This document shows, piece after piece, positions 3,392 through 64,000 of a DNA stretch of 64,000 nt. A program made the position numbers and the translations under genes. Positions within the stretch are counted from its first letter, which is position 1; each line of letters opens with the position of its first letter. The notes under the pieces were generated by a model, which worked only from the letters and a program-made list of their open reading frames with translations, had not been told where the DNA came from and did not search any database. The DNA is from Clostridium sp. CAG:710 (GTDB lineage: Bacteria > Bacillota_I > Bacilli_A > RF39 > UBA660): positions 24,252-88,251 of the forward strand of contig HF996851.1 of the NCBI GenBank assembly GCA_000432595.1, read 5' to 3'.

Positions 3392-3392
3392 T

Positions 3393-4068: not shown

Positions 4069-4079
<11 letters not shown>
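3393..4079 (+). CDS. trmD: tRNA (guanine37-N1)-methyltransferase TrmD
   Basis: MIRIDILTLFPSMF, DDTPYGGGAGMV, GHYEGFDER and GDYVLTGGE. Start taken at the internal ATG after GGGAGG. Confidence 0.95.
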
Positions 4080-5771
<1,692 letters not shown>

Positions 5772-23197: not shown

Positions 23198-23227
23198 TTG
23201 ATTTTCAATGGGGGGGGGGTGTATACT
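23198..23227 (+). promoter_or_regulatory. promoter-like module with G10 tract (copy A)
   Basis: TTGATT (23198-23203), an 18-nt spacer holding G10 (23210-23219), then TATACT (23222-23227). AAGGAAGG RBS and ATG 23264 lie downstream. Confidence 0.5.
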
Positions 23228-45146: not shown

Positions 45147-45220
45147 ATTTCTAACTATTGTTATTTTACTAATAAATTAGTATAATTATCTTATAATATT
45201 AGTAGTAAAGGAGTTAGAGT

Positions 45221-45904
45221 ATGAATGTTATTGATGTAGCAGTAGTTTTACTTATATTATGTGCTGGTGTAGTTGGATTAAAAAGAGGGGTTTTTAAAGA
45301 ACTAGTTATGACTGTAGGGCTTTTAATAGTGTATATTCTTGCATTTAAATTAAAAGATCCTATTGCTAATTGGCTTAGTCTAAATCTACCATTTTTTAAC
45401 TTTGGTGGAGATTTCTATGGAGCAACAGCTCTAAACATTTTATTATATCAAGCAATTGCATTTATAATTATGTTTGCACTTCTTATGGTAGTGTTTAATG
45501 TAATATTAAGTATCACAGGAGTTTTTGAAAAGGTATTAAAATTCACAGTCATTTTAGGAATTCCATCTAAAATTCTTGGATTTATAGTTGGACTTATTGA
45601 AGGATACATTGTTATGTTTATGGTTTTATTTGTACTTAATCTACCATTCCTTAGAGTAGATGTAGTAGAACAATCACGCCTTAGAGAACCAATACTTAAT
45701 TCATCACCAATACTATCAAATGTAGCTCATAATGCGAATAATGCAATTTCTGATATTTATAAGCTTGAAAAGAATTTTATGAATAATAAAAATGTAGATT
45801 ACTTTAATAATGAAACTGTCAGAATACTTCTTAAATATAATATAGTTACTAGAGAATACATAGATAAATTAGAAGCATCAGGCAAAATAAATATTAATAT
45901 ATAA
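45221..45904 (+). CDS. cvpA: CvpA-family membrane protein
   Basis: MNVIDVAVVLLILCAGVVGLKRGVFKEL N-terminus, four TM segments. Confidence 0.75.
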   Translation: MNVIDVAVVLLILCAGVVGLKRGVFKELVMTVGLLIVYILAFKLKDPIANWLSLNLPFFNFGGDFYGATALNILLYQAIAFIIMFALLMVVFNVILSITGVFEKVLKFTVILGIPSKILGFIVGLIEGYIVMFMVLFVLNLPFLRVDVVEQSRLREPILNSSPILSNVAHNANNAISDIYKLEKNFMNNKNVDYFNNETVRILLKYNIVTREYIDKLEASGKININI

Positions 45905-45914
45905 AGGAGACATT

Positions 45915-46208
45915 ATGATAAAATTAGATAAAGAAAATTTTGATGAAGTTATAAAAGAGGGTAGAGTATTAGTTGATTTCTACGCTGACTGGTGTGGTCC
46001 TTGTAGAATGCTTGCCCCTGTTTTAGAAGAAATTTCAAATGAAAATATTATAAAAATAGTAAAAGTAAACGTAGATAATCATGAAGACATTGCTAGAAGA
46101 TATGGAGTTATGAGTATTCCAACACTAGTACTATTTGAAAATGGAAATGAGCAAAAAAGAAATACTGGTTTTATTCCAAGGGAAGCAGTAGAAGATTTTA
46201 TAAAATAA
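45915..46208 (+). CDS. trxA: thioredoxin
   Basis: VLVDFYADWCGPCRMLAP and MSIPTLVLFENG. Confidence 0.92.
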   Translation: MIKLDKENFDEVIKEGRVLVDFYADWCGPCRMLAPVLEEISNENIIKIVKVNVDNHEDIARRYGVMSIPTLVLFENGNEQKRNTGFIPREAVEDFIK

Positions 46209-46239
46209 AAAAAGCACTTTTATAAGTGCGTATCCAAAA

Positions 46240-46572
46240 CTATAAGAAGAAGCTTGGCTCTCCAGAGTTATTATAACTTGTTGATGGGGAAGAGTTATTT
46301 GTTGTAGTCATATTAGAAGAGTTGTTACTTACAACTTCTTCTTTTTTTGTATCATCGTCCCTAACTGCCCCCATAACTCTAAATACTGTTTTAGCGTTAT
46401 TTATTATTGGTTTTACTTGATAGGCAAGAGGTATAGCTTGATTTACAATATTTAATGTTTTTTGTGTATTATTTAGGATAGCTCCCCAATCGAATTTTGC
46501 CTTCAAACCAGCAAAAAATCCAGTTGGTCTTGTATAGTATGGATAAAAATTATTGAAGCCACTATTAAACAT
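46240..46572 (-). CDS. hypothetical protein (possibly YqfQ/VrrA-like)
   Basis: 110-aa ORF with a GGTGGA-type RBS and an Asn/Ser-rich C-terminus. Family assignment is from memory only. Confidence 0.4.
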   Translation of the reverse strand: MFNSGFNNFYPYYTRPTGFFAGLKAKFDWGAILNNTQKTLNIVNQAIPLAYQVKPIINNAKTVFRVMGAVRDDDTKKEEVVSNNSSNMTTTNNSSPSTSYNNSGEPSFFL

Positions 46573-46675
46573 ATATCCACCTCACTTTATTATATGAATT
46601 TGTTAAAAATTGTTTAATTTTAAATCAATATATGTTATACTTTATTAGAATATGGAATAATAGAGGAGGTTTACT

Positions 46676-48043
46676 ATGGGTATTTTTAAATCTAAAAACA
46701 GCAAAAATAAAGATAAAACCACTTTTAAACTTGAAGGAGATGAACTTGCTAAAGAGCTTGAAAGAGTAAAACAAGAAAGTAGTGAGTTCAAAGGCGAAAA
46801 AGTAGAAATCCAAGATAAAAAAGAAAAGCCAAAGAAACTAACTCAATTTAAATATGTAGTTAAAGCATCTAATGGTGAGAAAATAAAAGGTGTATTTGAT
46901 GCTGAAACTCAAGATGATGTTAGAATTTTTCTTGTTAATGGTGGTTATGAAATAGTAAGTATTGCACCTGTTAGTAAACTAGAACTTAATATAAATATAG
47001 GGTCTAACAAAATTAAAAATAACGATTTAGCTTTTATGTTGACACAATTATCTACATACGTAAAAGCAGGAATTCCACTTATTGATTCAGTTAGAATTTT
47101 ATCAAAACAAACTACAAAAGCAAACTATAGAAGAATACTAGATAAAGTAGTATATGAACTTATTATGGGTGAAAAGTTTTCTTCTGCACTTGAAAAACAA
47201 GGAAATGTTTTTCCAAAATTACTAATTAACATGGTAAAAACATCTGAAATGACAGGTGATTTATCAGGTACATTAGATGAGATGGCAGACTATTATACTG
47301 AAATAGAAAAGACAAGAAAACAAATGATATCAGCAATGGTATATCCAGCAGTTATATTAGTATTAGCAATTGCTGCCATTATATTTATTGTTGTAACAGT
47401 AGTGCCACAATTTATAGAAATGTTTAGAAGTAACAATGCAAAACTTCCAAGTATAACTCTATTTATAATTAATGCAAGTAACTTCCTAACACAAAAATGG
47501 TATATTATAGCAATTATTCTTCTTGTTGTTTTAATTGTTTACAGAACGTTATATAAAAACGTTAAAGGATTTAGAAAAGCAATGCAAACAATATTTATGA
47601 AAACTCCTGTAATTGGTAATGTAATTATATATAATGAAGTTGCTAATTTCACAAGAACATTTGCTTCACTATTAAACCATAACGTATTTATAACTGATAG
47701 TATGGAAATCCTATCTACAATATCAGATAATGAAATATATAAAGATATAATCAGTAGAACCCTAATTGGACTTAGTAAAGGTGATAAAATAAGCGAAACA
47801 TTTAAAGGAGAATGGGCATTTCCAATCATAGCTTATGAAATGTTAGTAACCGGTGAAAATACTGGTCAATTAGCACTAATGATGGAAAAGGTTGCAGATT
47901 ATTATCAGGAACTTCATAAAAATGCAGTTTCTATGATTAAAAGCTTAGTTGAACCAGTTATAATCTGTCTACTAGCTGTTGCAGTTGGATTTATTATGTT
48001 ATCAATAATAATCCCAATGTTCGATTTATATCAACAAATGTAA
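46676..48043 (+). CDS. GspF/PilC/ComGB-family type IV pilus or competence platform protein
   Basis: Two T2SF repeats (LAFMLTQLSTYVKAGIPLIDSV...; FTRTFASLLNHNVFITDSM...) and three TM segments. GGAGG RBS. Confidence 0.85.
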   Translation: MGIFKSKNSKNKDKTTFKLEGDELAKELERVKQESSEFKGEKVEIQDKKEKPKKLTQFKYVVKASNGEKIKGVFDAETQDDVRIFLVNGGYEIVSIAPVSKLELNINIGSNKIKNNDLAFMLTQLSTYVKAGIPLIDSVRILSKQTTKANYRRILDKVVYELIMGEKFSSALEKQGNVFPKLLINMVKTSEMTGDLSGTLDEMADYYTEIEKTRKQMISAMVYPAVILVLAIAAIIFIVVTVVPQFIEMFRSNNAKLPSITLFIINASNFLTQKWYIIAIILLVVLIVYRTLYKNVKGFRKAMQTIFMKTPVIGNVIIYNEVANFTRTFASLLNHNVFITDSMEILSTISDNEIYKDIISRTLIGLSKGDKISETFKGEWAFPIIAYEMLVTGENTGQLALMMEKVADYYQELHKNAVSMIKSLVEPVIICLLAVAVGFIMLSIIIPMFDLYQQM

Positions 48044-48059
48044 TACGAGGAGTGGTTAA

Positions 48060-48788
48060 ATGAATACACTTTATGTAGTTTTATTCTTTATATTTGGTAC
48101 TATATTTGGCTCATTCTTTGGAGTTGTTGGAAGTAGAATTCCAAACAATGAGTCTATAGTTACACCAAGTAGTCATTGTAATAAGTGTTCTCATAAATTA
48201 AAATGGTATGAATTAATACCAATTTTTTCGTATATAATTCAAGGCGGAAAATGTAGTAAATGTGGTAGTAGTATACCAATCCTTTATCCAATAACAGAAC
48301 TAATTAGTGGATTATTATTTGCAGTTTCTTACTTTTGTTTCGGATTTAGTACTAAACTTTTTATAGCACTCCTAGTAGCTTCATTACTAGTTATAGTTAT
48401 AATAACAGACGTTACATATTTAATTATTCCAGATGAAGTAACACTAACTTTTTCGATATTAGTTATTTTAGTTAAACTAATTAGTCTAGATTTTAGAGGA
48501 ACTTTTTATTCAATTTTATCAGGTATTTTGTTATTTTCACTAATGTATTGTATAATGATATTAGGTAACAAACTATTTAAAAAAGAAACACTAGGAGGGG
48601 CAGATATTAAACTGATGTTCTTTGTAGGACTAGTTGTATTTCCATCCCTTGGAATATTTACTATATTCTTATCTAGTTGTTTAGCACTCCCAGTTTCACT
48701 ATATTTATTATTAAAAGATAAAAATAGTATTATCCCATATGGACCATTTATATTAATGGCATTATTCCTAGTATACTGTTTTAATTAA
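48060..48788 (+). CDS. A24-family prepilin peptidase
   Basis: Zinc-ribbon CNKCSHKLKWYELIPIFSY...CSKCG, and catalytic Asp contexts IIPDEV and LGGADIKLM. Confidence 0.88.
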   Translation: MNTLYVVLFFIFGTIFGSFFGVVGSRIPNNESIVTPSSHCNKCSHKLKWYELIPIFSYIIQGGKCSKCGSSIPILYPITELISGLLFAVSYFCFGFSTKLFIALLVASLLVIVIITDVTYLIIPDEVTLTFSILVILVKLISLDFRGTFYSILSGILLFSLMYCIMILGNKLFKKETLGGADIKLMFFVGLVVFPSLGIFTIFLSSCLALPVSLYLLLKDKNSIIPYGPFILMALFLVYCFN

Positions 48789-48804
48789 AAAGGAGGAGGA
48801 TCCT

Positions 48805-50631
48805 ATGTATATATTAGATGCATACGTATCAGAAGATTTAGCGTTATTCCTAGGTAAAACTCTAAATTTAATTCATATTGCGGCACCTATATTACTAATT
48901 GTTTTTGTAACTATTGACCTAATAAAAGCAATTCTTTCACAGGATAATGAAATAGTAAGTAAAACCGTTAGAAGTATTAAAAATAGAACTATCGCATGTA
49001 TAATGATATTCTTTTTACCAACTATAGTTGAAGTAATATTTACTCAAGCATCTGTTACATTAAACCTAGATAAAAAAGAATATGAGGATATATTATCCAC
49101 ATATAAATCGGTAATTAATTCAGAAAACATTAAAGTTGGAGATAAAACCCAAACTACAGATATAAGTAGTAACCTTTTATATACATTAGAATCAAAAGAA
49201 AAAAAAGATGATACTAAAAAAGAAGAATTATTAACAAAATCTAAAGTTATTACAAAATATATCTTCACAGGCTTAAAATTTCAGGATCTAGCACTAGGCT
49301 TTTCTAGTGATGATTTAACTATTACATATGATGGAAAAACCTATAGTATAAATGATAGACTTAACATTTCTTATCAAAGTCTATTTGCTAGGGATGTAGT
49401 AGATAATGGGGACTATGTAATAGCGACCGTAACGTTTAAAAATGCAACCATTAATAATACAAAAGTGGATAGTGGAAGCATCTCATACTTCTATTCTAAA
49501 GAAACAGATAAATACTTATTAGAAAAAATAAATATTGAAACATCAAAAAGTATAAGTGATTTTACTTCTAAAACTAAAACAAGTGAAAAGCCAGATGAAA
49601 TAAATGCATCTAGTAAATTCGCATCTACTAATCCAGAATATAATTATGATAAATTAAATAATTTAAAAGAATCAGACATTTCTAAAATATATGAAGCAAA
49701 TAAAGAAAACATTGTTATGCTTAATACAATATCAAATCAAGCTACTGTAAATAGAGCAACGGGCTTCTTTATAAGTGATGGAGTAATCACAACATCATGG
49801 AGTTACTTAGAAAATTCATTCATGATAGGAGATACTATAATTGTTAGTGATGTATTAAATAATACATATAAATGTGTTGGACTTGTCGCAATGGATACAG
49901 AAAATGATATCGCAGTTATAAAATTAGATAAAAAATCAGGAACACATGTTAAATTTGGTGATAAAACAAATCTATCTATTAATGATCCAGTTATAACTAT
50001 AACTAGTAAAACAGGCGTAGGACTTTCTAGTTTAGTTGGAATTGTATCATCAGTTAATGATAATCTAATTAATGTTTTACCACTTGAAAAAAATGATTGG
50101 GGTTCCGCAGTATTTAATACAGATGGATATGTAGTTGGAATTAATAATTCAAAACTATTAAATTCAGAGTTATCTAACGCATCAAGCATAGATACATTAA
50201 AAACATTATCATCAAAACTTAAAAATACTAAATTAAAAGATATTAAAGCCACTTCTCTAGAAGAAGTAAAAAGTAAGTATTATTATAAAGAAAAAAATAA
50301 AGAAGAAATAAAAAAGCTTGTTGATACAAAGATTTGGAATAAATATAAATCTATTGGAAATATAGAAAATACAATTGCACTTAACTTAGTAAAAGCAAGT
50401 TATTATAATGATACATTGAGTCTAAGATATGAAAACAACACAAGCAAGTACATTGATACACTAAGTTATGTAGAAGACTTTACAACAACACTTACTAATC
50501 AAGGATATACATTAAAATATAAGTCTGGTGAAAATACAAGACTTATGTACACTAAAGGTAGAGATAAAGTAGTTATCACAGAAGAATTTGATTATTTAAT
50601 CATCTTATTAGTAAGGGGTAGGGTACTATGA
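48805..50631 (+). CDS. membrane-anchored protein with a degenerate S1/HtrA-like (Trypsin_2) domain
   Basis: Two N-terminal TM segments. ATGFFISDGVITTSWSYL / DIAVIKLD / NDWGSAVFNTDGYVVGIN aligns to GSGFiisdGyIlTNaHV / DlAvlKl / GNSGGpl..G.viGIN. Confidence 0.55.
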   Translation: MYILDAYVSEDLALFLGKTLNLIHIAAPILLIVFVTIDLIKAILSQDNEIVSKTVRSIKNRTIACIMIFFLPTIVEVIFTQASVTLNLDKKEYEDILSTYKSVINSENIKVGDKTQTTDISSNLLYTLESKEKKDDTKKEELLTKSKVITKYIFTGLKFQDLALGFSSDDLTITYDGKTYSINDRLNISYQSLFARDVVDNGDYVIATVTFKNATINNTKVDSGSISYFYSKETDKYLLEKINIETSKSISDFTSKTKTSEKPDEINASSKFASTNPEYNYDKLNNLKESDISKIYEANKENIVMLNTISNQATVNRATGFFISDGVITTSWSYLENSFMIGDTIIVSDVLNNTYKCVGLVAMDTENDIAVIKLDKKSGTHVKFGDKTNLSINDPVITITSKTGVGLSSLVGIVSSVNDNLINVLPLEKNDWGSAVFNTDGYVVGINNSKLLNSELSNASSIDTLKTLSSKLKNTKLKDIKATSLEEVKSKYYYKEKNKEEIKKLVDTKIWNKYKSIGNIENTIALNLVKASYYNDTLSLRYENNTSKYIDTLSYVEDFTTTLTNQGYTLKYKSGENTRLMYTKGRDKVVITEEFDYLIILLVRGRVL

Positions 50632-51161
50632 GACAGGAACGTTTAGATAAAAAGAAAAGATTACTAAGAGGAGCTTCTCTAACATTTGTATTCGCAATAG
50701 TACTAGTTATTCTTTGGATAATGTTTTTTAAAAACAGAACTTATATAAAACAATATGAAAGTAAATATTTATCATTTAGTTATGATAGTACATGGAAAGT
50801 AAGCAAGAAAGATACATATTCTGCATCCCTTACTCATAGAACTAATAGCTTTATTGATATGAAAGTTACTAAAATAGGTTCTTACTACAAAAGTGGTGAT
50901 TTAACAAGAATTGCTAGTGAAGTAAAATATGAAATAGAAAAACAAAATGCTAAATACAAATTATTAAAAGAAGAAGATAGTTCAACTAATTCAAAAGAAA
51001 TATATAAAATATTATATGAAAATAATGATACACAGTCATTAATTGTTATTGTTAAAGGCGATAACTATGTATGTGTAATTAACTGTGTAGCAAAAGATAT
51101 GTACTTTGATATGTTGTTTGATAGTTTTAATACAATAATCAATAGTGTTAAGATTAAATAA
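50628..51161 (+). CDS. hypothetical membrane-anchored protein
   Basis: 177 aa, one N-terminal TM segment (SLTFVFAIVLVILWIMFF). Overlaps the previous stop by 4 nt. Confidence 0.5.
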   Translation: MRQERLDKKKRLLRGASLTFVFAIVLVILWIMFFKNRTYIKQYESKYLSFSYDSTWKVSKKDTYSASLTHRTNSFIDMKVTKIGSYYKSGDLTRIASEVKYEIEKQNAKYKLLKEEDSSTNSKEIYKILYENNDTQSLIVIVKGDNYVCVINCVAKDMYFDMLFDSFNTIINSVKIK

Positions 51162-51193
51162 ATTTTTAAGTATAAATAATTGGAGGTGAGAAT

Positions 51194-52507
51194 ATGAATA
51201 ATGATGATTATAAAAGAGATACTCAAAATAAAAACTCTTTTATTTATTCATATTTAAATAATACTCCAATTAATGTTCCATCGGGCGAAGAAGATATAGA
51301 AGTACTTGATTTTGACACAGAATTAGATAAACCAGTTGTTGAAACAGATCTTTCACACGCAACTGAAGGATTAGAAAAAATTAATACAGATAATAATACT
51401 GATAAAATGAAGATGGAGGACTTACTAAAAAAGACAGTAGCTCCTAAAGTAGAACATGAGATGAAAACTAGAAGGCAAAATAAAACCTTCTTTGTAACAT
51501 CTATTCTAGCTGGTGCATCATTTGTAGTTATAGTATTAATCGCAATTTTTACAAAAGGAACTTCATTTTATGTAGATTCTAGCGAAGTATATTATGAAAA
51601 TAAAAAGGTAGAAAAAGTAGAAGAATATCAAACCGCAGTAGTAACCGATAATATATATACAGGTGTAACAGTAAATAATATATCTGATGCAAAAAAACTA
51701 ATTGAAAATGATTCAACTAACCAAAAAGCAAAATGTAATAATGTTAAAACTAAAGAAGTAGAAAAAAGAATAGAAAAAAACTATGGAATAACTGCGATTA
51801 ACTTTTGTGAAATGGATTATGATTTTGCATTAGAAATAGAAAATGTTATTAAAACAGTATATAAAGAATTTCCAAGTATTAAAGGATATATTACTAATAT
51901 AACACTAATAAATACCCCAGAATTTACTAACTATATTGCATCATTTGTATCAGCAAAATTGTTCGCTAAATCAAATACTAAGAATACGTATCCCAACGTT
52001 TATAAAATGTCGATTTTCCTAAATGCAAGTTACTTTTTAAATAAAGATTATTTAACAGCAACAGTTAATGATTCATCATCATATGGATATTTTCCTAGTA
52101 ATGCAACTAGATATACTATAGTAGCACATGAATTAGGACATTACTTATCATTCTTAGCAGAAATGAGATCAACTACAGACTTAGATAGTGTGCTTCTTCT
52201 TACAAAAGAAAACTATAGAGAATATTCTAATTTAATTAGTGATTCAAATAATGGAGTATTCTCACTTAAAATGATAAATGAAGCATATGAATCATATAAT
52301 AAATCACATAAAGGTGAATTTAGTAATGCAGATAAATTTAGGGAAAGTATCTCAGAGTATGCAATGGCAACAGATGCAAATGGTAGCTATATTTATGATG
52401 AAACAATCGCAGAAGCATTTCATGATTATTATGTAAATAGAACTAAGGCAAAACCTGCAAGTAAAGAGATAATGAAAGTACTAAGAAAATATTTAAATAA
52501 AAAATAA
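51194..52507 (+). CDS. hypothetical membrane-anchored protein with HExxH motif
   Basis: 437 aa, TM segment FFVTSILAGASFVVIVLIAIF, later TIVAHELGHYLSF. Confidence 0.5.
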   Translation: MNNDDYKRDTQNKNSFIYSYLNNTPINVPSGEEDIEVLDFDTELDKPVVETDLSHATEGLEKINTDNNTDKMKMEDLLKKTVAPKVEHEMKTRRQNKTFFVTSILAGASFVVIVLIAIFTKGTSFYVDSSEVYYENKKVEKVEEYQTAVVTDNIYTGVTVNNISDAKKLIENDSTNQKAKCNNVKTKEVEKRIEKNYGITAINFCEMDYDFALEIENVIKTVYKEFPSIKGYITNITLINTPEFTNYIASFVSAKLFAKSNTKNTYPNVYKMSIFLNASYFLNKDYLTATVNDSSSYGYFPSNATRYTIVAHELGHYLSFLAEMRSTTDLDSVLLLTKENYREYSNLISDSNNGVFSLKMINEAYESYNKSHKGEFSNADKFRESISEYAMATDANGSYIYDETIAEAFHDYYVNRTKAKPASKEIMKVLRKYLNKK

Positions 52508-52540
52508 AAGTATTGGTTATACTATGAAGGGTGATTAATA

Positions 52541-53491
52541 ATGATAGTAAGACTTGGTTATGTATCATTACCACTTAGTATAAATATTACATCTTCAAAA
52601 ACTATAACTTACACAAGATTTAAAAATATAAATGATGGTTTTAATAAGATAGATTCAATTATATTAGATAATCTAGATGCTTTATATGAAATATTAAAAT
52701 ATAATAAAGCCAATAATATACATTTTTATAGAATGACATCTGCCTTAATACCACTTGCGACATTAGATGATGTTAAATTTGATTATATTACCCCCTACTT
52801 AAAATTGTATAAAAAAGTAGGGGATTTTGCTAATAAAAATGAGATTAGAGTTGATGCACATCCTGATCAATTTTGCGTTTTAAATAGTATAAATAAAGAT
52901 ATTGTAAAAAATAGTATTGAAATATTAAAGTACCAAAAAGCACTTTCTAAAGCATTTAAATTTACTAGTTTTAAATTAGTACTTCATGTAGGTAGTAGTG
53001 CAGGTGGTAAAAAGGCAAGTATAACCAGATTTATTAATAATTTTAATAAATTAGAAGATTGTATTAAAAAAATGATAATACTAGAAAATGATGATAAAGT
53101 ATTTAATATAATAGATGTTTTAGAACTATCAGAAAAGTTAAAAATACCAATGGTACTTGACTATCACCATTATATATGTAATAACAATAATGAAGATATA
53201 GAAAAGTATTTACCTAGAATATTTAATACTTGGAAAGGTGAAGTATATCCTCCAAAAGTTCATTTTTCTACACCAAAATCTAAAAGAAAAAATGAATTTA
53301 GATCTCATAATGATTTTATAAATGTAAATGATTTTATAACATTTTTAGAAATAGTAAAAAAATATACTGATAAGTTAGATATAATGATTGAAGCAAAAGC
53401 AAAGGATTTAGCACTATTTAAATTAGTAAGAGAATTAAAATATAAAAAAGAATATCAATTTATTGATGATACAAGTTTTATTGTAAAGTAA
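52541..53491 (+). CDS. uvsE: UV damage endonuclease UvsE/UVDE
   Basis: MIVRLGYVSLPLS, IHFYRMTSALIPLA, VDAHPDQFCVLNS, LVLHVGS and MIEAKAKD. Confidence 0.88.
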   Translation: MIVRLGYVSLPLSINITSSKTITYTRFKNINDGFNKIDSIILDNLDALYEILKYNKANNIHFYRMTSALIPLATLDDVKFDYITPYLKLYKKVGDFANKNEIRVDAHPDQFCVLNSINKDIVKNSIEILKYQKALSKAFKFTSFKLVLHVGSSAGGKKASITRFINNFNKLEDCIKKMIILENDDKVFNIIDVLELSEKLKIPMVLDYHHYICNNNNEDIEKYLPRIFNTWKGEVYPPKVHFSTPKSKRKNEFRSHNDFINVNDFITFLEIVKKYTDKLDIMIEAKAKDLALFKLVRELKYKKEYQFIDDTSFIVK

Positions 53492-54052
53492 TTATTTTGG
53501 ATATATTTAACTTGTAAAATATAATGATATTAATGTATAATAATAATGTTAAGATAAAGGAGTAGTAAAATGAAAGATAGAAAGAAAAGAAATATTATAA
53601 TTGGCTCTTTATGCTCTTTGCTTGTATTTATGGGTATTGGTTATGCAGTATTATCGCAGACTCTAAATATAAGTGGTACAGCAAATATGAAAGGTACTTG
53701 GGATATAAAAATAACTGATATAAGTGAAGCAAGTAGAACTGGAAAAGCAGATTCAGGTACACCAACTATTTCATCAAGTGGAGTATCTGCATCATTTGAA
53801 GCAAACTTATGGATGCCAGGAGACTCAATAACTTATAATATTACAGTAAAGAATAATGGTAATATAGATGCAGCTTTAAAAGAGTTAGTACCATCAGTAG
53901 AAAATGGCGTACAACAAGTAAAATTCAGTAATAATGCAGTACAAGGAAAAGTATTAAGGCAAAGTGAAAGTTATACTTTTCAAGTAAGTGTAGTATTTGA
54001 TGAAGATGCAACTGAGATACCACAAGATTCAAAAACAAATCCACCAAAATAC

Positions 54053-54148
54053 ACAATATCATTAACATTTGTACAATATACAGGAAATAGTTTATATACA
54101 CCAACAAATGAAACAACAGATAATTCATGTTTTGTGATTAATACAGCA
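54053..54148 (+). repeat. tandem duplication, unit 1
   Basis: 96 nt matching 54150-54245 at 92/96 positions. The period is 97 nt, with a junction T at 54149. Confidence 0.9.
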
Positions 54149-54149
54149 T

Positions 54150-54245
54150 ACAATATCATTAACATTTGTACAATATACAGGGAATAGTTTATATACACCA
54201 GTTAATGAAACAACAGATAATTCATGTTTTGTGATTAATACAGCA
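54150..54245 (+). repeat. tandem duplication, unit 2
   Basis: See unit 1. Differences are A/G in caggaaat vs cagggaat, and ACA/GTT in ccaacaaatg vs ccagttaatg. Confidence 0.9.
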
Positions 54246-55290
54246 GGAGAAATAACAGGATATGATTATAATTGTGGTACAGTAGTAACAGTACCTGCAG
54301 AAATTGATGGAATTCAAGTTAAAAGTATAACATCTATTGCTTTTGCTGAAACCAGTTCTTATAATGTATGGATGTATGGCAAAGAAGAAAGTGCAGATGT
54401 AACAAAAACTTATTACATTTTTAAAGATCAAAATGCAAGAGCATTATTCTTAGAATCACAAGGAATAACTCAAGAAGAGTTAGATGCTGAAGAAAACACA
54501 TATAATTATTTAAAAGGTGATCCTGCATTACAGAATATTGATTTGGGAATTTTTGAAATGGGCGTGAATATTTTTAGGAATTCAACTGGTAAAATAATTA
54601 CAGACACTTATGGCAATGTTGCACTTACAGAATTAGACCTAAGTCATGCTGATTATCTGGAAAATGTTGAATGTTTAGATTGGGTTCCAAACTTAAAAAC
54701 ATTGAATTTAAATTCAACATCTGAAACATTAAAAATTAATAACACAATAAATTATGCATATTATTTTAATAACCCTTATCTCAATTATCAAGATGATAAC
54801 ATAAATGAAACTCTTCAACAATATATAAAAACATTAGATTTGTTAGTTGTAAATGCGGATAATTTTGCTACACTAAGTTCTTCAAGGTTAGAAATGTTTG
54901 TGGGAAACCAAAAAATTAAAACACTTATTGTATTGGATGGAAAAAATAAACATACAATTGAAAGCTCTAATCTTTTTCAATCGACTACTTCAGAAATCAA
55001 AAATGTTATTATTGATGATGGTATAGTTGAAATAAAAAATAGCGTTTTTTCAAGCCACAGTATTGAACACGTGACACTTCCAGCAACGTTAAAAACAATT
55101 GGCAGTTACACTTTTGCTTTTAATAAATTAACAAACACAGGTCTTGGTAAACTTCCTAGTTCATTAACTAGCTTATCTACATATGCATTTAGTGATAATC
55201 CCGATTTAACTCAAATAACATTAACTTCTCCAAAAGACTTGCCTGGTTGGCCAAATGGTGGAACAGTTGATGGTAAGACAGTAATATATG

Positions 55291-55317
55291 AAAGATAGAT
55301 TTTTCTATCTTTTTTTC
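55291..55317 (+). terminator. terminator after the LRR gene
   Basis: AAAGATAGA (55291-55299) pairs with TCTATCTTT (55304-55312), then a T run. Confidence 0.85.
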
Positions 55318-55358
55318 TTTTATAGTTGTATAATAAATATTATTGGAGGGATATTACT

Positions 55359-57095
55359 ATGAATAATCAAAATATTATAAATGAAATACGTAGTAAAATA
55401 GATATAGTTGATTTAATTAGCGAATATGTTCCTCTATCTCAAAAGGGCAAAAACTATTTTGGAGTTTGTCCTTTTCACAATGATACTAATCCTTCTATGA
55501 GTGTATCTAGAGAAAAACAAATTTATAAATGTTTCTCTTGTGGTGCAAGTGGCAATATATTTACATTTGTTAGTGAATATGAAAATATCTCTTTTAAAGA
55601 AGCACTTAACCTTTTAGCAAATAAAATTGGATATAAGATAGACACAGGTAAAAGTTATACTAAACCAGATTTATATAAAAAATATTATGATATGTATGAT
55701 CTTGCTACTAAATTTTATCAAAATAATATTAATACTCATGAAGGAAAAGAAGCTAAAGAATATTTAAAAAACAGACAAATAAATGAAGAAATAATAAAAA
55801 GATTTCAAGTGGGATTTTCTCTTGATAAAAAAAATTCATTAATTGAACTTTTAATAAAAAAAGGATATACAGTAAAAGAACTTGTTCAATATGGTCTTGC
55901 AGTAGAGGACCACGATGTTTATATAAATCGTATAATGTTTCCACTATATGATACATCAGGTAGAGTAGTTGCATTTAGTGGAAGAATATATGGAAATTCT
56001 AAACTTAATAAATATGTAAATACAAAAGAAACTCCAATATTTAAAAAAGGGCAATGCTTATATAATTATCATATAGCAAAAGAAGCATCACGTAAAAAAG
56101 GATTTGTAATAATAATGGAAGGTTTTATGGATGTTATTAGAGCAAGTACTGTAGGATATGATAATGTAGTTGCATTAATGGGAACTGCACTTACTAGTGA
56201 ACAACTTGGGTTAATAAAAAGGTTATCACTAAATATAATATTATGTTTTGATGGAGATAGAGCTGGAGAACACGCAACTATGAGTGCTGGAGAACAATTA
56301 GAAAAAATTGGAATAAATCCTAAAGTAATTGCATTAACTGGAGGAGATGATCCTGATACATTCATAATAAAAAATGGAAAAGAAAGATTTGATTCTCTAG
56401 TAGAATCAGCTATTAATTTTAGTGATTATAAAATAAAAGCTTTAAAAAGTGGAGTAAATTTTCAAAGTGATATAGAACTTTCTAACTATATTGATAAGGT
56501 AATTAAAGAAGTAAGTTTAATAAAAGATGACATAAGAAGAGAGATAATACTAAAAAAACTTGCAATTGAAGTAAATATAGGGTATAATACCCTAGAAAAA
56601 AGGTTAGACAAGTATATATCTGAATCTAAGCCTGTAGAAGTTGCAAATCCAATTAAAAATAATGAAAAGCCTCATTTGACTAGATATCAAAAGGCAGTTA
56701 ATGCATTTCTTTATAACATGATGACTAATCCAGATGTAATAGAACGTTATAATAGAGAAAATATTTGTCTTTTAACTCCAGTTAATAGATATCTAGCTAA
56801 TGAAATATCATTTTATTATGAAAAAATTGGTAGTATAAATATTGCAGATATGTATACCTATCTAGCTGATAAAGAAGAGTTATTAGCGCTTGTTAAAGAG
56901 ATTACAGAAACAGATGAGTATGATTGTAGTGCAAAAGCAATTGATGATTATATAGATGTGATTAATGATTATAATAAGAGGCAAGAGATTAAACGCCTAA
57001 ATGAGATGATAAGAAAAGAAAATGATCCAATGGAAAAATCAAAAATTGCTGAACAGATTAGGCTAATAAAAATTGGGGAGAGTAAGAATGGTTAA
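55359..57095 (+). CDS. dnaG: DNA primase
   Basis: Zinc finger [13 protein letters not shown]...[10 protein letters not shown] and [13 protein letters not shown]...DGDRAG. ATG 55359 follows GGAGGG. Confidence 0.93.
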
Positions 57096-58182
57096 CGAAA
57101 TTAAAACAATTGAAGATAGAAAAAAATCTTTAATTAAAAAAGGTAAGGCTAATGGATATGTAACATATGAAGAAATGGCCGAAGAATTAAAAGGACTAGA
57201 AGTTGATTCTGATACCCTTGATGATTTATATAATACATTAGTTGAAAATCACATTGAAATTATATCTGAGACTACAGATAATTCTGAAGATGATAATGAT
57301 GAAAATCCAGGGGATTTAGTTGTTGAAGATTTAACCCTATCTAAGGACATTAAAATAAATGATCCCGTTAGGATGTATTTAAAAGAAATAGGTAGAATTA
57401 ATCTACTTACTAGTGATGAAGAATTTGAATATGCACGTCTTGCTGAACAAGGCGATGAACATGCAAAAAAAATGCTTGCAGAATCAAATCTTCGTCTAGT
57501 AGTATCAATCGCAAAAAGATATGTTGGTAGAGGAATGCTTTTCCTTGATTTAATACAAGAAGGTAATATAGGACTTATGAAAGCAGTAGAAAAATTTGAT
57601 CCAACTAAAGGATATAAGTTTTCTACATATGCTACTTGGTGGATTAGACAAGCTATAACAAGAGCTATCGCAGACCAAGCAAGAACTATACGTGTGCCTG
57701 TACATATGGTAGAAACGATTAATAAACTTGCGCGTGTACAAAGGCAATTAACACAAGAATTAAATCGTGAACCAACAGAAGAAGAAATTGCTAAGAAGTT
57801 AGGAGTAACTGTTGACAAAGTTCGAGAAGTATATAAGATAAGTCAAGATCCAGTTTCTCTAGAAACTCCAATTGGTGAAGAAGATGATTCACATTTAGGA
57901 GATTTCATTAAAGATGAAAGAACTATGTCACCAGAGGAGTATGCAACAGTAGAACTTTTAAAAGAAGAATTAGCTAGCGTATTATTAACATTAACTGAAC
58001 GTGAAGAAAAAGTATTAAGACTTCGTTTTGGTCTTGATGATGGACAATGCAGGACACTAGAAGAAGTTGGACAAATATTTGGCGTTACAAGAGAAAGAAT
58101 TCGTCAGATTGAAGCTAAAGCATTAAGAAAACTTCGTCATCCATCACGTTCAAGAAAACTTAAGGATTTCTTGATCGATTAA
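57088..58182 (+). CDS. rpoD: primary sigma factor RpoD/SigA
   Basis: [90 protein letters not shown]. Confidence 0.96.
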
Positions 58183-58961
58183 TGAAAATTAATAATAGAC
58201 TTAAAAATGTAGCTAATTTTGTTTTAAAAGATTCGAATGTGATAGATGTAGGCTGTGATCATGCGTTATTATGTATCTATTTAGCAAGTAATTATCCTAA
58301 TATGAGGCTTATTGCATCTGATGTAAGAGAAGGACCTCTTAAACAAGCAAAAGCAAACATAGAAAAGTATGGCTTAGAAGATAGGATTACACTTAAATTA
58401 GGTGATGGAATTGCTACTATAGATAATGATACGAATGTTATTGTTATATCTGGCATGGGTGGTATTACAATTGCTGATATTATAACAAAAAATAAAGAAA
58501 AATTAGATAAAATAGATCAGATAGTTGTATCTCCTAATAATGATTTCTATGCAGTAAGAAGTGAAATTACAAAATTAGGCTTTATAATTGATAGAGAAGA
58601 AGTAATAAAAGAAAGAGATAAATTTTATTTAATAATTAGTTTTGTCAAAGGAAAGAAAAAATACAAAAAAAGAGAACTTTACTTTGGAAGTAAATGTATC
58701 TTATATGATAAGACTCTAAGAGAGTATTATAAAGGACAATTCCTATTACTATTTAATAAGTATTCTAGACTTCCTGATAAAAGAATATTTGCAAAGCATA
58801 AAATAAAAGTTAAAATAGATATGCTAGCAGATGATATAGATATGTTAGATAAAAAACAAGCAAGAGAAGAAAGAAAAATGAAAAGGGAAGCAAAAAGACT
58901 TGCAAGAATAGAAAAAAGACAAGCTAAGAAAGAAAAGAAGTTATTAGAAAAAAGTGTTTAA
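58182..58961 (+). CDS. trmK: tRNA (adenine22-N1)-methyltransferase TrmK with a Lys/Glu-rich tail
   Basis: RLKNVANFV...VIDVGCDHALLCIYL..., ASDVREGPL, ISGMGG. The position after sigA matches Bacillus. Confidence 0.8.
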   Translation: MKINNRLKNVANFVLKDSNVIDVGCDHALLCIYLASNYPNMRLIASDVREGPLKQAKANIEKYGLEDRITLKLGDGIATIDNDTNVIVISGMGGITIADIITKNKEKLDKIDQIVVSPNNDFYAVRSEITKLGFIIDREEVIKERDKFYLIISFVKGKKKYKKRELYFGSKCILYDKTLREYYKGQFLLLFNKYSRLPDKRIFAKHKIKVKIDMLADDIDMLDKKQAREERKMKREAKRLARIEKRQAKKEKKLLEKSV

Positions 58962-59035
58962 GGGACTTAAAAAGAGTTCCTTTTTTTATTCAAAATTTAA
59001 TGTCTACTTGCTTTGTATCAAGCAAATATTCCGTC

Positions 59036-59065
59036 TTGATTTTCAATGGGGGAGGGGTGTATACT
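59036..59065 (+). promoter_or_regulatory. promoter-like module with an interrupted G tract (copy B)
   Basis: TTGATT (59036-59041), an 18-nt spacer holding GGGGGAGGGG (59048-59057), then TATACT (59060-59065). 40/43 identical to the copy A core. Confidence 0.5.
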
Positions 59066-59098
59066 TAATATATATTAAAATAGGAGAGGTTAGAAAGT

Positions 59099-62000
59099 AT
59101 GGATAGTAAAGATAAAGGCTTAACCCTAAGTCAAAAGATTGTTACAGACGCAGTACTAAGAAAGAATGATTATAATAAAAGAGAATGGTTATCCAGAAGA
59201 TATGGAAAAGGTAGAAAACTTGATCAAGCATTTGAAAAAATCTTTTCATCAATTTCATATAATGGATTTAAAGTTGAATTACTACTAAAATTGAATGCAG
59301 GTGATGATAGGATTTCAGATGTAATTGAGAATGAAATAGATTCTACAGGAGACTTTCATTACATAAAAAATATGATACTTCCAGAAATCAGGCATGTAAA
59401 AGATGAAAAAAAGAGATTTGATTTGATAAAAAAAGTGGACAATAAAGTCATTACAATATTAGGTAAAAATACCAATTATGAAAATAAATATATTTTTGAT
59501 TTGAGGGATGTTACAGATTACATTAATGATTTGTCTAAGATGCTTGAAGATTTTAACGAACCAGAATTTATATTATCATTTTTAAGCTTAGACAGATATG
59601 ATCTAGGTTCAATTGTGAAAAAAATGTCAACATTGACTATTGATGAGAAATTGCTTTCATCATTTCCTAAGGTTGCACAAACTATAGATGAAAATAATGA
59701 TGCTAAAATAGAATCAATTTGCCAATATTTTTATCATTTGGATGATAAACAAAAGTTGATACTTATTAATTGCATGCCTGAGAATAAGCTTCCATACATA
59801 TTATTGGATAGTGATTTTTTATGCCAATTGCCTTCCCTAAAAGAAAAAATAAATAATGCATCAAACAAAGATGAAAATGATTTGAAATTATTGTATGAGA
59901 AAATATCAAGATTTGAATTGTCAAAAGATGCTCCAGAAGGAGTAAAAAAAATGTATTATGCTCATAATTATGGTAGATATTCTGACATACTCGAACAATT
60001 AAAAATCCCATCTAATATTGAATTCCTGATAGAAAAAAATATTGATTTAAATCTAATTTTTAGTGTCAAAGATAATGAACAAAATTATGTAAATGTAAAT
60101 GCCATTGCTAGTCAATTCGATGATAAAAAAGATGCAATAAAAACAATTGCTTTATATAAAGCAATAACTTATTATAAAGATTATGTTGATAGTAAAGATC
60201 CAAAGGAAAGCATATATCAGCATATATATAATAGTATTATTGCTGGATCAAAATATTTAGAGAATATGCCAGAAGATTTTAAGAAAGAACACCCTGATTT
60301 ATTTTTAAGTCAAGATACTCCAGAAGAATTGAGAGAGTTGCTTTGCAATAGAGGATTGACATCCGAAAAATTGTTAGAACATCCAGAGTGGATTGATGTT
60401 TTGGCTGAAGGAAGCATTAATTTAAATGCGATATTCCATTTTGGAAGAAATCATAAAATAAATAATGAAGAATCAATTAATGATTTTGAGACTCGTAAAG
60501 AAACAATCAAGTGTATTGCAATATATAAACAAATGAACTGTAGCTTAAGTAGTACAATCATAAATAAAGAATCCATTTATCAAGAAATGAGAAGCGCGAT
60601 TTTACATGGCCGCGCCTATCCAGAAGATATGCCAGAAGATTTTAAGAAAGCACACCCTGATTTATTTTTAAGTCAAGATGCTCCAGAAAAGTTAAAAAAC
60701 TATTTTTACGATTCTAATGGTGGATGTTTTATGTCATTCAAAAAAATACAAGAGCATAAAGATTGGTTACCATTTATTACGGGAAAAAGATTAACTGCTT
60801 CGTTGCTTAGGGATCCAACTCATAATAAAAAAATGATGAAATATTTTGAAGTTTTTGGAGAAGAAAAGGCTATCAAATTAGGAATTTCTAGAACCGAAAC
60901 TATTGAACAAATGGTATTTTCAAATCAAGCGGATTTGATGAAAGCATGGTATGACAAAACAGGTCAAAAATTTATACCGGATTTTGTAATAATGCAAAAT
61001 TTCAAAATAGAAGAGGCTGATAAATTTTTAACATCTGGTAAAATTTGGAGTAACTTAATGAAAATCAAAAGCTTTACTCAAACTCCAGAAGCAAGAGAGG
61101 CTATGTTAAAACTTGCCTATTCATTTGGTGCCTTTGATCAAGATCAAAGAGGAATTAAAAAATTACAAGATTTATTAGTGGGACTACCTAAGAAAATCGA
61201 TTTGGAGCAAGCACATATATTTGAGCAAATAGCTACACAAATTGATTACAATGGTCAAACGGATTTAATAGAGTCATTAAGGCAAGAAAATGTTGATATT
61301 GATTTTTCAAAAAATATATTTGAGCAAATATATAGAAAAAATGAAGACGGCTCTTATACTTTGACTATTAATGCTCAAAGTTGTCCTAAATCAGCACAGG
61401 CTATTAGAGGCGTTTTAGAAAAATTTAGAGAAGTACCAATGCTTACACCAGATAAAGCGCATCATTATCTAGGTGGTTTCAAATTAGAATATGATTCTGA
61501 TTTTAGGGAGTTTTTCTTATCGAATTTTGACATTATTATTGGCGATAGTAAGTATTTGTCACAAATTTCTGCAATACAACGTAGATTCAAAGAAATAAAA
61601 ACTAGATATTCAAATGTTAATTTAACATTGGATTTAGCCATGAGTTATATCAATAATAATAAATATGAAAATGTAAATACTGGAAACGAAAGAGTAACAC
61701 AAGTAGCAGGACTTCAAAATTATTCTCAGCAAGATTTTGAAATTCTTCAACAAATTTATAATTATGGCAAACAGAGAACGTTTAGCAGTATTCCTCGTAT
61801 TTCGTCAGATAAAAGTGTGAATCTTCCATCTGGAACTTATCATTATGAAATTTTGAGACTTGATGATCCTAGGGCAATGTCAATAGGTTTTGAAAGCGAT
61901 TGTTGTCAGAGATTAGGAGAACCTGCAGAAGTTTGCATGGAACATAGTATGGTTGATAAAAATGGAAGAGTATTTATTATAACAAATACTGCTGGAGAGA

Positions 62001-62935
62001 TAGTTGCCCAAAGTTGGGTATGGAGAAACAAAGATGTGTTGTGTTTTGATAATATAGAAGTTCCAGATCAAAAAATGTGGGATAATGGAATACAAAGAGG
62101 ACGAGAAGATTCAGGTATAAGAAATCAATTTACTGATGATATATTAGCAATTTATAAGATGGTTGCTCATGAATTGATAGAAGTAGATGAAAAAGTTTAT
62201 AAGGAATTACTCGATAGTAGTAAAATTACACAAGAACAATATGAGGGATTAAGATTAGGAAAAATTACAGCTGGTCTTGGATATAGTAATATAAAAGGAT
62301 CATTAAAAACTTTGCCAATTGATAAAACAATTTTATCAAGACCATTACCTTTTGAAGGACCAGTCAAATTATCTAGAGGACTTTATACTAGCGATTCTAC
62401 TACTCAATATATTTTAGAAGAACGAGAAGATAGAAAAGATTTTGAGGGTGAAACACTTCCAGTGCACAGTGATACCTATATTGAATATAGCGATTCTAAT
62501 TTTGCAAAGAAATCTTTACTTACTTTGGAAAAATTAGAAATAGTTACCAAAGAAGATCCAAGGCATTTGGAAACAGCTGTTAGTGATCATACTGATCCAG
62601 AACATCTTGTTACTGAAATAGCGAAAAACTATGAATTAAACCCGGAAACCACAAGAATAGTAATGAATCCCAATTTTGCTATTATATATGATGTCAATGA
62701 TAATAAATTGGAAATAGGAGATTTGCTTTTTAACACTAAAATTAATAATGGAGAACAGCAAATGAATATTGAAAATCAAGTTGTAATGCAAATAAGATTA
62801 GCATTAGAACAAATTGCTAATAATAAAGAAGTTGATATATCTAACCTAGATGAAAAACAAAAAGAAATGTATGCTAAGGTTACTGGTTTAACAGAAGAAA
62901 TAGATATAGAAAGAGGTGTTGGTCATGCAAGATAA
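59099..62935 (+). CDS. giant hypothetical protein (1278 aa) with internal repeats
   Basis: Uninterrupted ORF with a GGAGAGG RBS and no TM or signal sequence. PEDFKK(E/A)HPDLFLSQD(T/A)PE repeats. Cys-rich C-terminal block GFESDCCQRLGEPAEVCMEHSM...AQSWVWRN. Confidence 0.7.
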   Translation: MDSKDKGLTLSQKIVTDAVLRKNDYNKREWLSRRYGKGRKLDQAFEKIFSSISYNGFKVELLLKLNAGDDRISDVIENEIDSTGDFHYIKNMILPEIRHVKDEKKRFDLIKKVDNKVITILGKNTNYENKYIFDLRDVTDYINDLSKMLEDFNEPEFILSFLSLDRYDLGSIVKKMSTLTIDEKLLSSFPKVAQTIDENNDAKIESICQYFYHLDDKQKLILINCMPENKLPYILLDSDFLCQLPSLKEKINNASNKDENDLKLLYEKISRFELSKDAPEGVKKMYYAHNYGRYSDILEQLKIPSNIEFLIEKNIDLNLIFSVKDNEQNYVNVNAIASQFDDKKDAIKTIALYKAITYYKDYVDSKDPKESIYQHIYNSIIAGSKYLENMPEDFKKEHPDLFLSQDTPEELRELLCNRGLTSEKLLEHPEWIDVLAEGSINLNAIFHFGRNHKINNEESINDFETRKETIKCIAIYKQMNCSLSSTIINKESIYQEMRSAILHGRAYPEDMPEDFKKAHPDLFLSQDAPEKLKNYFYDSNGGCFMSFKKIQEHKDWLPFITGKRLTASLLRDPTHNKKMMKYFEVFGEEKAIKLGISRTETIEQMVFSNQADLMKAWYDKTGQKFIPDFVIMQNFKIEEADKFLTSGKIWSNLMKIKSFTQTPEAREAMLKLAYSFGAFDQDQRGIKKLQDLLVGLPKKIDLEQAHIFEQIATQIDYNGQTDLIESLRQENVDIDFSKNIFEQIYRKNEDGSYTLTINAQSCPKSAQAIRGVLEKFREVPMLTPDKAHHYLGGFKLEYDSDFREFFLSNFDIIIGDSKYLSQISAIQRRFKEIKTRYSNVNLTLDLAMSYINNNKYENVNTGNERVTQVAGLQNYSQQDFEILQQIYNYGKQRTFSSIPRISSDKSVNLPSGTYHYEILRLDDPRAMSIGFESDCCQRLGEPAEVCMEHSMVDKNGRVFIITNTAGEIVAQSWVWRNKDVLCFDNIEVPDQKMWDNGIQRGREDSGIRNQFTDDILAIYKMVAHELIEVDEKVYKELLDSSKITQEQYEGLRLGKITAGLGYSNIKGSLKTLPIDKTILSRPLPFEGPVKLSRGLYTSDSTTQYILEEREDRKDFEGETLPVHSDTYIEYSDSNFAKKSLLTLEKLEIVTKEDPRHLETAVSDHTDPEHLVTEIAKNYELNPETTRIVMNPNFAIIYDVNDNKLEIGDLLFNTKINNGEQQMNIENQVVMQIRLALEQIANNKEVDISNLDEKQKEMYAKVTGLTEEIDIERGVGHAR
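60264..60326 (+). repeat. intragenic repeat, copy 1
   Basis: 63 nt, 61/63 identical to 60627-60689. Offset 363 nt, which is in frame. Confidence 0.85.
60627..60689 (+). repeat. intragenic repeat, copy 2
   Basis: See copy 1. Confidence 0.85.
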
Positions 62936-63950
62936 TAATTTTGATAAAATAATATCAGATGCCCTACTAACAAATAAAAAAAATTTAAGTCAAAATATAA
63001 AACCAATAATAAATCAAATAAGTAAAGTAATTAAAGATAATAAGAAAATAATTAAGCAAGCAAACGAGATAGACAAAAAAAATAACAATGGTTTTTTGAT
63101 GGATTTTAATGTCATTGATAATATATTAGAAAATCTATCAAAAGAAGATATTTTATATGGTAAAGTAGTATTACAGCAAAAAGATGATGATAAAAAGATT
63201 ATTTACGGAAAAGAAATTCTGGACTATGGCAACATCGTGGTTATAAATGATGGAAATCCATATGTAACTATAGAAATGGCTTTGAGAAATATAATGGCTG
63301 GAAATACTACAATATTTTCAAATAAAGGATATATGTATGGTACTAATCGATTATTAATACAAATGATCCAGGCAGTATTAGAACAATTTAATATTTCAAA
63401 AAGCCTAATACAATTAGCAATCACTGAAGATTTTACGGAAATCTTATCCAATTATGCTAATATTGACCTAGTTGTATGTATTGGAGATCACGATTTACAA
63501 AATCAAATACTAAGCAAATCAAAAAACAAAACAATTATAAGCGGATATGAAAATTTTGATTTATATATTGATGATATAACTCATGCTGACTTTATAAACA
63601 AAATCATGAATTTAGGTTTGAACATTCAGATGTATGTAAATGATAATATAAAATCAAATTATCCTGATGCTATTAAAGTAAATGACATTGATGAAGCAAT
63701 CGCCCAAATCAATTATATTGGAAATAGATATGCAGCTTCTATATTTACAACATCAGAAGCTAATGCATCAGAATTTATAAAAAAGGTAAAATCTAAAATA
63801 GTTACCGTCAATACAAGTCCAACCATAGAAAGAATGATAGATATAAATCAAGCAGATTTGGTTAATGAAAAGACAATAATTTATCCGATGAGTTATAAAT
63901 TTGATAAAACAACTCAAAAGATATATATAAAAGAAAAAGAAACAGAATAA
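62925..63950 (+). CDS. truncated ProA-like (gamma-glutamyl phosphate reductase-like) protein
   Basis: IIKQANEIDKKNNNG, NIVVINDGNPYVTIEMALRNIMAGNTTIFSNKG, IDLVVCIGDHDL and DEAIAQINYIGNRYAASIFTTSE...VNTSPT are collinear with ProA. About 60 residues around the expected catalytic Cys are absent. ATG 62925 follows AAGAGGTG and overlaps the upstream stop by 11 nt. Confidence 0.55.
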   Translation: MQDNNFDKIISDALLTNKKNLSQNIKPIINQISKVIKDNKKIIKQANEIDKKNNNGFLMDFNVIDNILENLSKEDILYGKVVLQQKDDDKKIIYGKEILDYGNIVVINDGNPYVTIEMALRNIMAGNTTIFSNKGYMYGTNRLLIQMIQAVLEQFNISKSLIQLAITEDFTEILSNYANIDLVVCIGDHDLQNQILSKSKNKTIISGYENFDLYIDDITHADFINKIMNLGLNIQMYVNDNIKSNYPDAIKVNDIDEAIAQINYIGNRYAASIFTTSEANASEFIKKVKSKIVTVNTSPTIERMIDINQADLVNEKTIIYPMSYKFDKTTQKIYIKEKETE

Positions 63951-64000
63951 GCAATACTATCATATAAAATATATATTATAGTTAGAGAAAGGAGATAAGA

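Follow-up and report, generated by a model that had tools for sequence, protein, structure and literature searches.

The assembled sequence between uvdE and dnaG carries a surface-protein gene that reads as two separate open reading frames, divided by a tandem duplication of 97 bp. Positions are given in the coordinates of the window, by which we mean the whole 64,000-nucleotide stretch of DNA that was analysed. The host belongs to an uncultured human-gut Bacilli lineage with a GC content of 27%. Its best RpoD match in the genome collection (92%) came from a rabbit-gut MAG named 'uncultured Bacilli', and neighbouring matches were labelled Bacilli, Tenericutes or Acholeplasmataceae; searching this genome collection with the split-gene protein and an invariant 25-mer returned no match. 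Upstream of the split gene lie mutS (42594-45146) and, at 46676-50631, genes for a T2SSF-family protein, a prepilin peptidase (A24) and a 608-aa trypsin-like protein. Judging from their annotation, the T2SSF and prepilin peptidase genes could belong to a pseudopilus for DNA uptake (competence). Further along, a 62-bp direct repeat (60264-60325 and 60627-60688, 97% identity by BLAST, 363 bp apart) is located inside a 1278-aa ORF at 59099-62935.

Anatomy of the split gene

The features of the split gene are as follows.

53512-53541, plus strand: promoter-like site TTGTAA-N18-TATAAT upstream of the split gene, a consensus match only
53570-54187, plus strand: ORF A (205 aa), which makes up the 5' part of the split gene and encodes a TM/signal helix at the N-terminus, then the beta-sandwich N-module
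54052-54148, plus strand: first copy of the duplication (unit 1), carrying the C...GGA...ACA haplotype and encoding YTISLTFVQYTGNSLYTPTNETTDNSCFVINTA
54149-54245, plus strand: second copy of the duplication (unit 2), carrying the T...GGG...GTT haplotype, in which Val replaces Thr
54231-55298, plus strand: ORF B, the 3' fragment, 355 aa, with a GTG start and BspA-type leucine-rich repeats; identical to protein P0136

Tandem Repeats Finder placed the repeat at 54053-54245, with a period of 97, 2.0 copies, 95% matches and a score of 358, and across the 64-kb window it was the sole tandem repeat scoring 80 or more. The initial annotation had described two 96-nt units (54053-54148 and 54150-54245) that are joined by a single T to give the 97-nt period. 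The repeat is thus present, and the 96-nt units show four differences, at index 33 (A/G) and at indices 52-54 (ACA/GTT), but the T is not a joiner. Among the loci compared, a T precedes the unit (codon TAT) in 14 of 18, or in 10 of 12 haplotypes, with a C in the loci L109/L110 and L111. Because most alleles have a T at this position, T 54149 appears to be templated, forming the first base of unit 2. The corrected units are therefore 97 nt long (54052-54148 and 54149-54245) and 92/97 identical, the fifth difference being C/T at the first base, and between them run identical stretches of 32, 18 and 42 nt without interruption. The junction at 54148/54149 reads GCA/TACAAT and contains no Ns; the junction-spanning letters of the two-unit form are GTGATTAATACAGCATACAATATCATTAACATTTG.

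The reading frames follow the course that had been proposed for them. ORF A reads unit 1 in frame, continues for 12 out-of-frame codons and terminates at the stop at 54187, ending in ...VINTAYNIINICTIYRE, and the frame of ORF B gives unit 2 as TISLTFVQYTGNSLYTPVNETTDNSCFVINTAGEITG, yielding ORFs of 205 and 355 aa. The first start codon in the latter frame is the GTG at 54231, just 5' of which no AGGAGG-type ribosome-binding site was seen. Deleting either unit yields a 543-aa ORF of the same length as the syntenic orthologues (95-96% identity), as expected from the original proposal that removal of one unit restores a 543-codon gene. The arrangement is therefore that of an intragenic tandem duplication that disrupts the product and whose frame is restored by loss of one copy. 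With a 97-nt period and two copies, it differs from a simple-sequence-repeat contingency tract, which has units of 1-9 nt.

Its sequence identifies the restored gene as a predicted 543-codon BspA-type LRR surface-protein gene. The protein is laid out as a hydrophobic helix (residues 3-23), a beta-sandwich (approximately 46-170), a linker (170-205) and a C-terminal LRR region. Pfam LRR_5 (PF13306) matched residues 434-520 with an E-value of 6.1e-13 and 49.2 bits, above the gathering threshold of 27.7, and the family profile matched PDB entries 4fd0, 4gt6, 4h09 and PcpA 4cp6 with E-values of 1e-19 to 4e-25. In its C-terminal repeats, and in the variation of repeat number between alleles, the split gene resembles other BspA-type LRR surface proteins; unlike them, it has the repeats fused to a conserved N-terminal TM helix and beta-sandwich module. 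The duplicated 32 codons correspond to the last strand of this N-module and the linker: in the structure model, the unit 1 peptide forms the final beta-strand and the low-confidence linker, residues 170-205 of which have a pLDDT below 50. The AlphaFold model of the N-module has a mean pLDDT of 65, that is, low confidence, and a Foldseek search with it gave no match at an E-value of 0.001 or better. In sequence, the N-module of the split-gene protein has sub-threshold similarity to DUF7507/DUF11, and the profile of the SipW-dependent matrix protein, TIGR04090, reached 18.7 bits against a cut-off of 60 in the 562-aa paralogue only. A kinship of the N-module with TasA/SipW is accordingly a lead only.

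The 562-aa paralogue (23264-24952) had been said to share the architecture of the restored gene. This holds for the N-terminal module of about 178 residues, which the two have in common at 52% identity, but not for the C-terminus, which is unrelated and gave no LRR_5 match. The N-module family (MxxRKKRNIIIG...GIGYAxLSQTLNISGTA...PGDxIxYxVTVxNxGNIDA) combines this module with unrelated C-termini both in the 562-aa protein and in a 516-aa member, the latter found at L111 15964-17514, about 4 kb past the window end. Going by this pattern, the common N-module may serve for export or anchoring.

Upstream of the paralogue at 23264, a G10 tract (23210-23219) fills the 18-nt spacer of a promoter-like TTGATT-N18-TATACT (window 23198-23227), in a genome with a G content of 15.6%. 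The same element of about 80 nt, G tract included, also precedes the N-module genes at a second locus in other samples, where the tract is G10 in L095 (1441-1462) and L105 (1447-1468) and G9 in L089 (1442-1462). The 80-nt element recurs before the 1278-aa gene at 59099, here with an interrupted tract at 59042-59063 (GGGGGAGGGG). The G9/G10 spacer is a candidate homopolymer site for promoter phase variation in this surface-protein family. The upstream region of the split gene, unlike these paralogue sites, holds no homopolymer tract.

Alleles of the locus in other gut metagenomes

Orthologues of exactly 543 aa, with 95-96% identity and uvdE-dnaG synteny, are present on long contigs of several human-gut metagenome assemblies. 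Across the strains compared at the uvdE-dnaG locus (window 53570-55298 together with L087-L102 and L108-L113), DnaG is 99-100% and UvdE 85-98% identical at the amino acid level. Among the same strains, the N-module is 95-98% identical and the 3' end is conserved, with a hypervariable C-terminal LRR region in between (38-96% aa identity); LRR counts differ between alleles, giving proteins of 543, 567, 589 and 635 aa. Such a layout resembles the exchange of a surface adhesin by cassettes. The conserved N-terminal module of about 0.6 kb occurs in many alleles and at a second locus (L095 165-3252, L089 149-3270), which shares the 5' leader and 3' end and has an N-module about 96% identical, and where a 386-aa multi-pass membrane protein is encoded upstream in the place of uvdE. 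The module in L095/L089 aligns to 53565-54148, extending to 54329.

Disrupted members of the family were also found. In L113 (ERZ28638108 scaffold_20, 233 kb; positions 3001-4781), loss of a single nucleotide outside any homopolymer or repeat, which turns GAT into GA within ...EELDAMVESDN..., leaves the orthologue in pieces of 275 and 319 aa. Truncated N-module proteins on long contigs include P0181 (293 aa) and P0180 (138 aa), and P0168 and P0169, on ENA contigs of 3-6 kb, continue from N-module residues 1-131 into unrelated tails. With 20 member sequences, the P0169 form need not be a chimera and may stem from a genuine recombinant or truncated gene.

We then compared each unit of the duplication with single-copy alleles. 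Unit 1 is identical to the L111 allele (ERZ1311279) at 97/97 positions and matches L002, L004 and L005 at 96/97; unit 2 is identical to the L108 allele (ERZ28595380) at 97/97 and matches L109 at 96/97. All five differences between the units are standing polymorphisms in single-copy intact genes, and the Thr-to-Val variant TPVNETT alone occurs in at least nine intact proteins. The units are thus not copies of the resident sequence that are identical or carry private mutations only; each is a different natural allele.

An independent metagenome contig, L109/L110 (ERZ501293), comes from essentially the same strain as the window and carries an intact 543-aa gene. From 43570 to 54148 the window differs from L110 by 22 mismatches, all of which fall in 53635-54106, and from 54150 to 64000 by none in 9,851 bp. 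Over 20.4 kb, the window and L109/L110 thus differ only by these 22 sites, by the extra copy and by T 54149, which is C in L109/L110. The substituted region is given below.

53635-54106, plus strand: 22-substitution patch, in tracts 53635-53679, 53824-53842, 54004, 54023, 54085 and 54104-54106

L111, in which the gene is likewise intact, differs from the window at 11 sites in the module and at four in the 9.85-kb right flank, and L112 (MetaHIT run ERR011125), a contig that begins within the gene, is 100% identical over 9,486 bp. The window, L109/L110 and L111 are hence near-isogenic (0-4 SNPs per 10 kb of flank) and have lineage-specific N-module markers in common. The same three assemblies differ by dense short tracts, for example by eight changes in 19 bp at 53824-53842 (PGDSITYNITV vs PGDAVVYNVTV). 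Such differences would reflect either frequent short-patch gene conversion or mixing of haplotypes by the assembler. Regarding the donor of the 22-site patch, none of the 23 aligning loci exceeded 96.5% over the full 579 bp except L111, with 98.1%; the paralogues within the window were rejected as donors, being too diverged (74-80% nucleotide identity).

These comparisons bear directly on the age of the duplication. The units differ at 5/97 positions, as compared with 0/1,053 elsewhere in the gene and none in about 19-20 kb of flanks (against L109/L110). Divergence of the copies in place, at 5/97, should also have left about 54 changes across the other 1,053 bp of the gene, where none is present. 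Divergence in place is ruled out by this disparity and by the clean flanks: since each unit is a pre-existing allele and the rest is identical to a contig with an intact gene, the copies did not diverge where they stand. Read against the population alleles, the mismatches mark the juxtaposition of two haplotypes, not age, a pattern that typifies either a haplotype-derived false duplication or allelic recombination. The initial annotation had taken four mismatches to argue against both an assembly artefact and a very recent event, an argument that fails, as all five correspond to existing alleles (L111 and L108, 97/97 each).

The two-unit form itself was encountered only once. The junction 35-mer had no match in the genome and metagenome contig collections, and all 162 other family proteins, as well as all 21 loci carrying that part of the gene, have one copy. 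A protein search with ORF A did not find its out-of-frame tail in other proteins. The product of ORF A (P0179) and ORF B are each on record on one NCBI contig only (98,036 bp), with ORF B also appearing in MetaClust, a listing that may not be independent. Among the proteins and loci compared, same-gene duplications in independent samples were not found. The comparison of orthologues that had been called for earlier thus yields single-unit intact alleles (for instance L109/L110 and L111) and no second case of the two-unit form. A reversible OFF state, raised as a possibility in the initial annotation, is unsupported, the duplication having been seen once among all assemblies searched.

Origin of the two-unit form

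Taken as a biological feature, the duplication is probably not real and, if real, would be an ordinary gene-disrupting duplication. The account that we favour, with moderate confidence, is that of a false tandem duplication created when two haplotypes were joined in metagenome assembly. The left sequence would follow an L111-type module haplotype (C-GGA-ACA) up to 54148, and the right sequence an L108/L109-type haplotype (GGG-GTT) from 54149/54150. The 97-nt overlap between them, with its five differing sites, would not have been merged, and abutting the two pieces would have produced the frameshift. Were this the case, the organism would carry one intact 543-codon gene. False duplications of alternative haplotypes, along with read-length duplications at contig boundaries, are a common assembly error (Rhie et al. 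2021, PMC8081667). As in those heterotype and contig-boundary duplications (PMC8081667), the two units are alternative haplotypes of one locus that lie in tandem, probably at a place where haplotypes diverge and where, in other assemblies, contigs end, and the result is just as readily mistaken for a partial gene duplication. The published cases were described in diploid vertebrate long-read assemblies, whereas the haplotypes here would be those of gut-metagenome strains or of paralogous modules.

The position of the repeat is in keeping with such a join. Both the patch and the junction lie wholly within the module that is common to alleles and loci. In other metagenomes, five contigs start within an interval reaching from 4 nt before to about 50 nt after the unit end, and one sample has two contigs that end at residues 55 and 193 and leave out the module in between. 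In P0183 the N-module gives way at residue ~208 to a tail rich in Gly, Pro, Cys, Gln and Arg that is unlike the gene family, which we read as a foreign, chimeric join. Going by these contig ends, the repeat spot would be a branch point of short-read assembly graphs; it is also a natural recombination boundary.

Several observations speak against an assembly join. On reading the sequence, the unit ends have only AATACA in common, 92 nt apart. A pure cycle in a de Bruijn graph cannot yield the junction, so the model has to invoke a later step (scaffolding, gap closing or contig merging). T 54149, moreover, matches neither the C found before the unit in this lineage nor the G found after it, so that the model needs a third haplotype or a filler base. 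The assembly is otherwise flawless, with no differences in about 20 kb. Finally, the short-tract mosaicism between the window, L109 and L111 could be real gene conversion, which would make a combination of duplication and conversion less far-fetched.

In a second explanation, possible though in our estimate less likely, the duplication is a real and very recent structural lesion of one clone, without dedicated function. It could have arisen by a single illegitimate recombination between N-module alleles, with DNA from a sister strain, a homology anchor on the left and no homology at 54148/54149, or in two steps, with 97 bp first duplicated spontaneously and an L108-type allele then donating a single short conversion tract (T...GGG...GTT). 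The gene would then be a frameshifted young pseudogene, open to chance reversion by slippage or recombination, as is any tandem duplication. In support, the flanks are error-free when set against an independent assembly, so the assembler was generally reliable, and the lineage markers common to the window, L109 and L111, coupled with their short-tract differences, form the pattern expected of frequent short-patch recombination. C-terminal cassettes of 38-96% aa identity beside conserved flanks suggest that crossovers near this spot are common in nature, the independent 1-nt break in L113 (275 + 319 aa) suggests that the gene is dispensable, and the upstream T2SSF and prepilin peptidase genes might provide a DNA-uptake pseudopilus. 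The entry of ORF B in MetaClust would also fit, though this listing may not be independent. Against a lesion, the event would call for an illegitimate join, rare in itself and backed by no more than 1 nt of microhomology, or else for two events at the same site on a background without other changes in 20 kb; it occurs a single time; and it falls where other assemblies break or form chimeras. Slippage between microhomologies can be discarded as the source, given that the AATACA copies are 92 and not 97 nt apart and the true boundaries have 1 nt in common.

We consider it unlikely that the repeat is a selected reversible switch, with the two-unit form as the OFF and the one-unit form as the ON state of an LRR adhesin, a reading modelled on the capsule-gene duplications of pneumococci. 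In pneumococci the duplicated copies are identical, clonal cultures give rise at high frequency to many different duplications, and cells of both phases have been seen. At the present locus, by contrast, two alleles stand side by side in an event that is unique and known from assembled sequence. A fresh slipped duplication would have identical copies, and not two different alleles as seen here. One-unit alleles do exist in essentially isogenic backgrounds (L109, L111), as a switch would predict, but excision would recreate neither of them, because 11-22 other sites differ. The identical runs of 32 and 42 nt would permit excision, every product of which regains the frame, and the paralogues offer another hint of variable expression in the gene family, in the G9/G10 tract of their promoter-like spacers. 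A documented precedent is the reversible loss of capsule by spontaneous sequence duplication in pneumococcal serotypes 3, 8 and 37 (Waite et al. 2001, 2003, as cited in PMC4243769), and the likeness to the S. pneumoniae genes cap3A, cap8E and tts lies in an intra-ORF duplication that abolishes the product and a precise copy loss that restores it. Contrary to what a switch would imply, the 162 proteins and 21 loci compared show no second duplication here, and the only other break examined in DNA, that of L113, is a plain 1-nt deletion outside repeats. Mismatch repair is a further point against switching, mutS being encoded nearby. Lovett and Feschenko reportedly found in 1996 that mismatches between tandem repeats of about 100 bp lower their excision in E. 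coli through MutS-dependent mismatch repair, in an engineered tetA reporter in which a copy is said to be lost by replication misalignment or recombination. The present repeat is comparable in its length of about 100 bp and its divergence of about 4-5%, and stabilisation by mismatches argues against efficient switching here. Improbable, too, is a broader recombination-driven system of surface-protein variation that would combine N-module mini-cassette conversions in otherwise clonal genomes, wholesale swaps of C-terminal LRR cassettes and homopolymer-G promoter switching of paralogues. The two-allele duplication of 97 bp would then be a genuine side product of such recombination, turning the gene OFF in a way that is inherited and now and then reversed.

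Consequences for reading the locus

The case calls for caution, as a frameshifting tandem duplication with few mismatches mimics an aged and meaningful switch. An annotator who trusted the assembled sequence would record a split gene or pseudogene here and build a story of phase variation on it. Alleles from the population reveal the mismatches as imported haplotype differences, of the kind that a join in a mixed-strain assembly would produce. If the duplication is real after all, it would represent an ordinary inactivation by tandem duplication, reversible in principle, at a hypervariable LRR adhesin locus of an uncultured gut bacterium.
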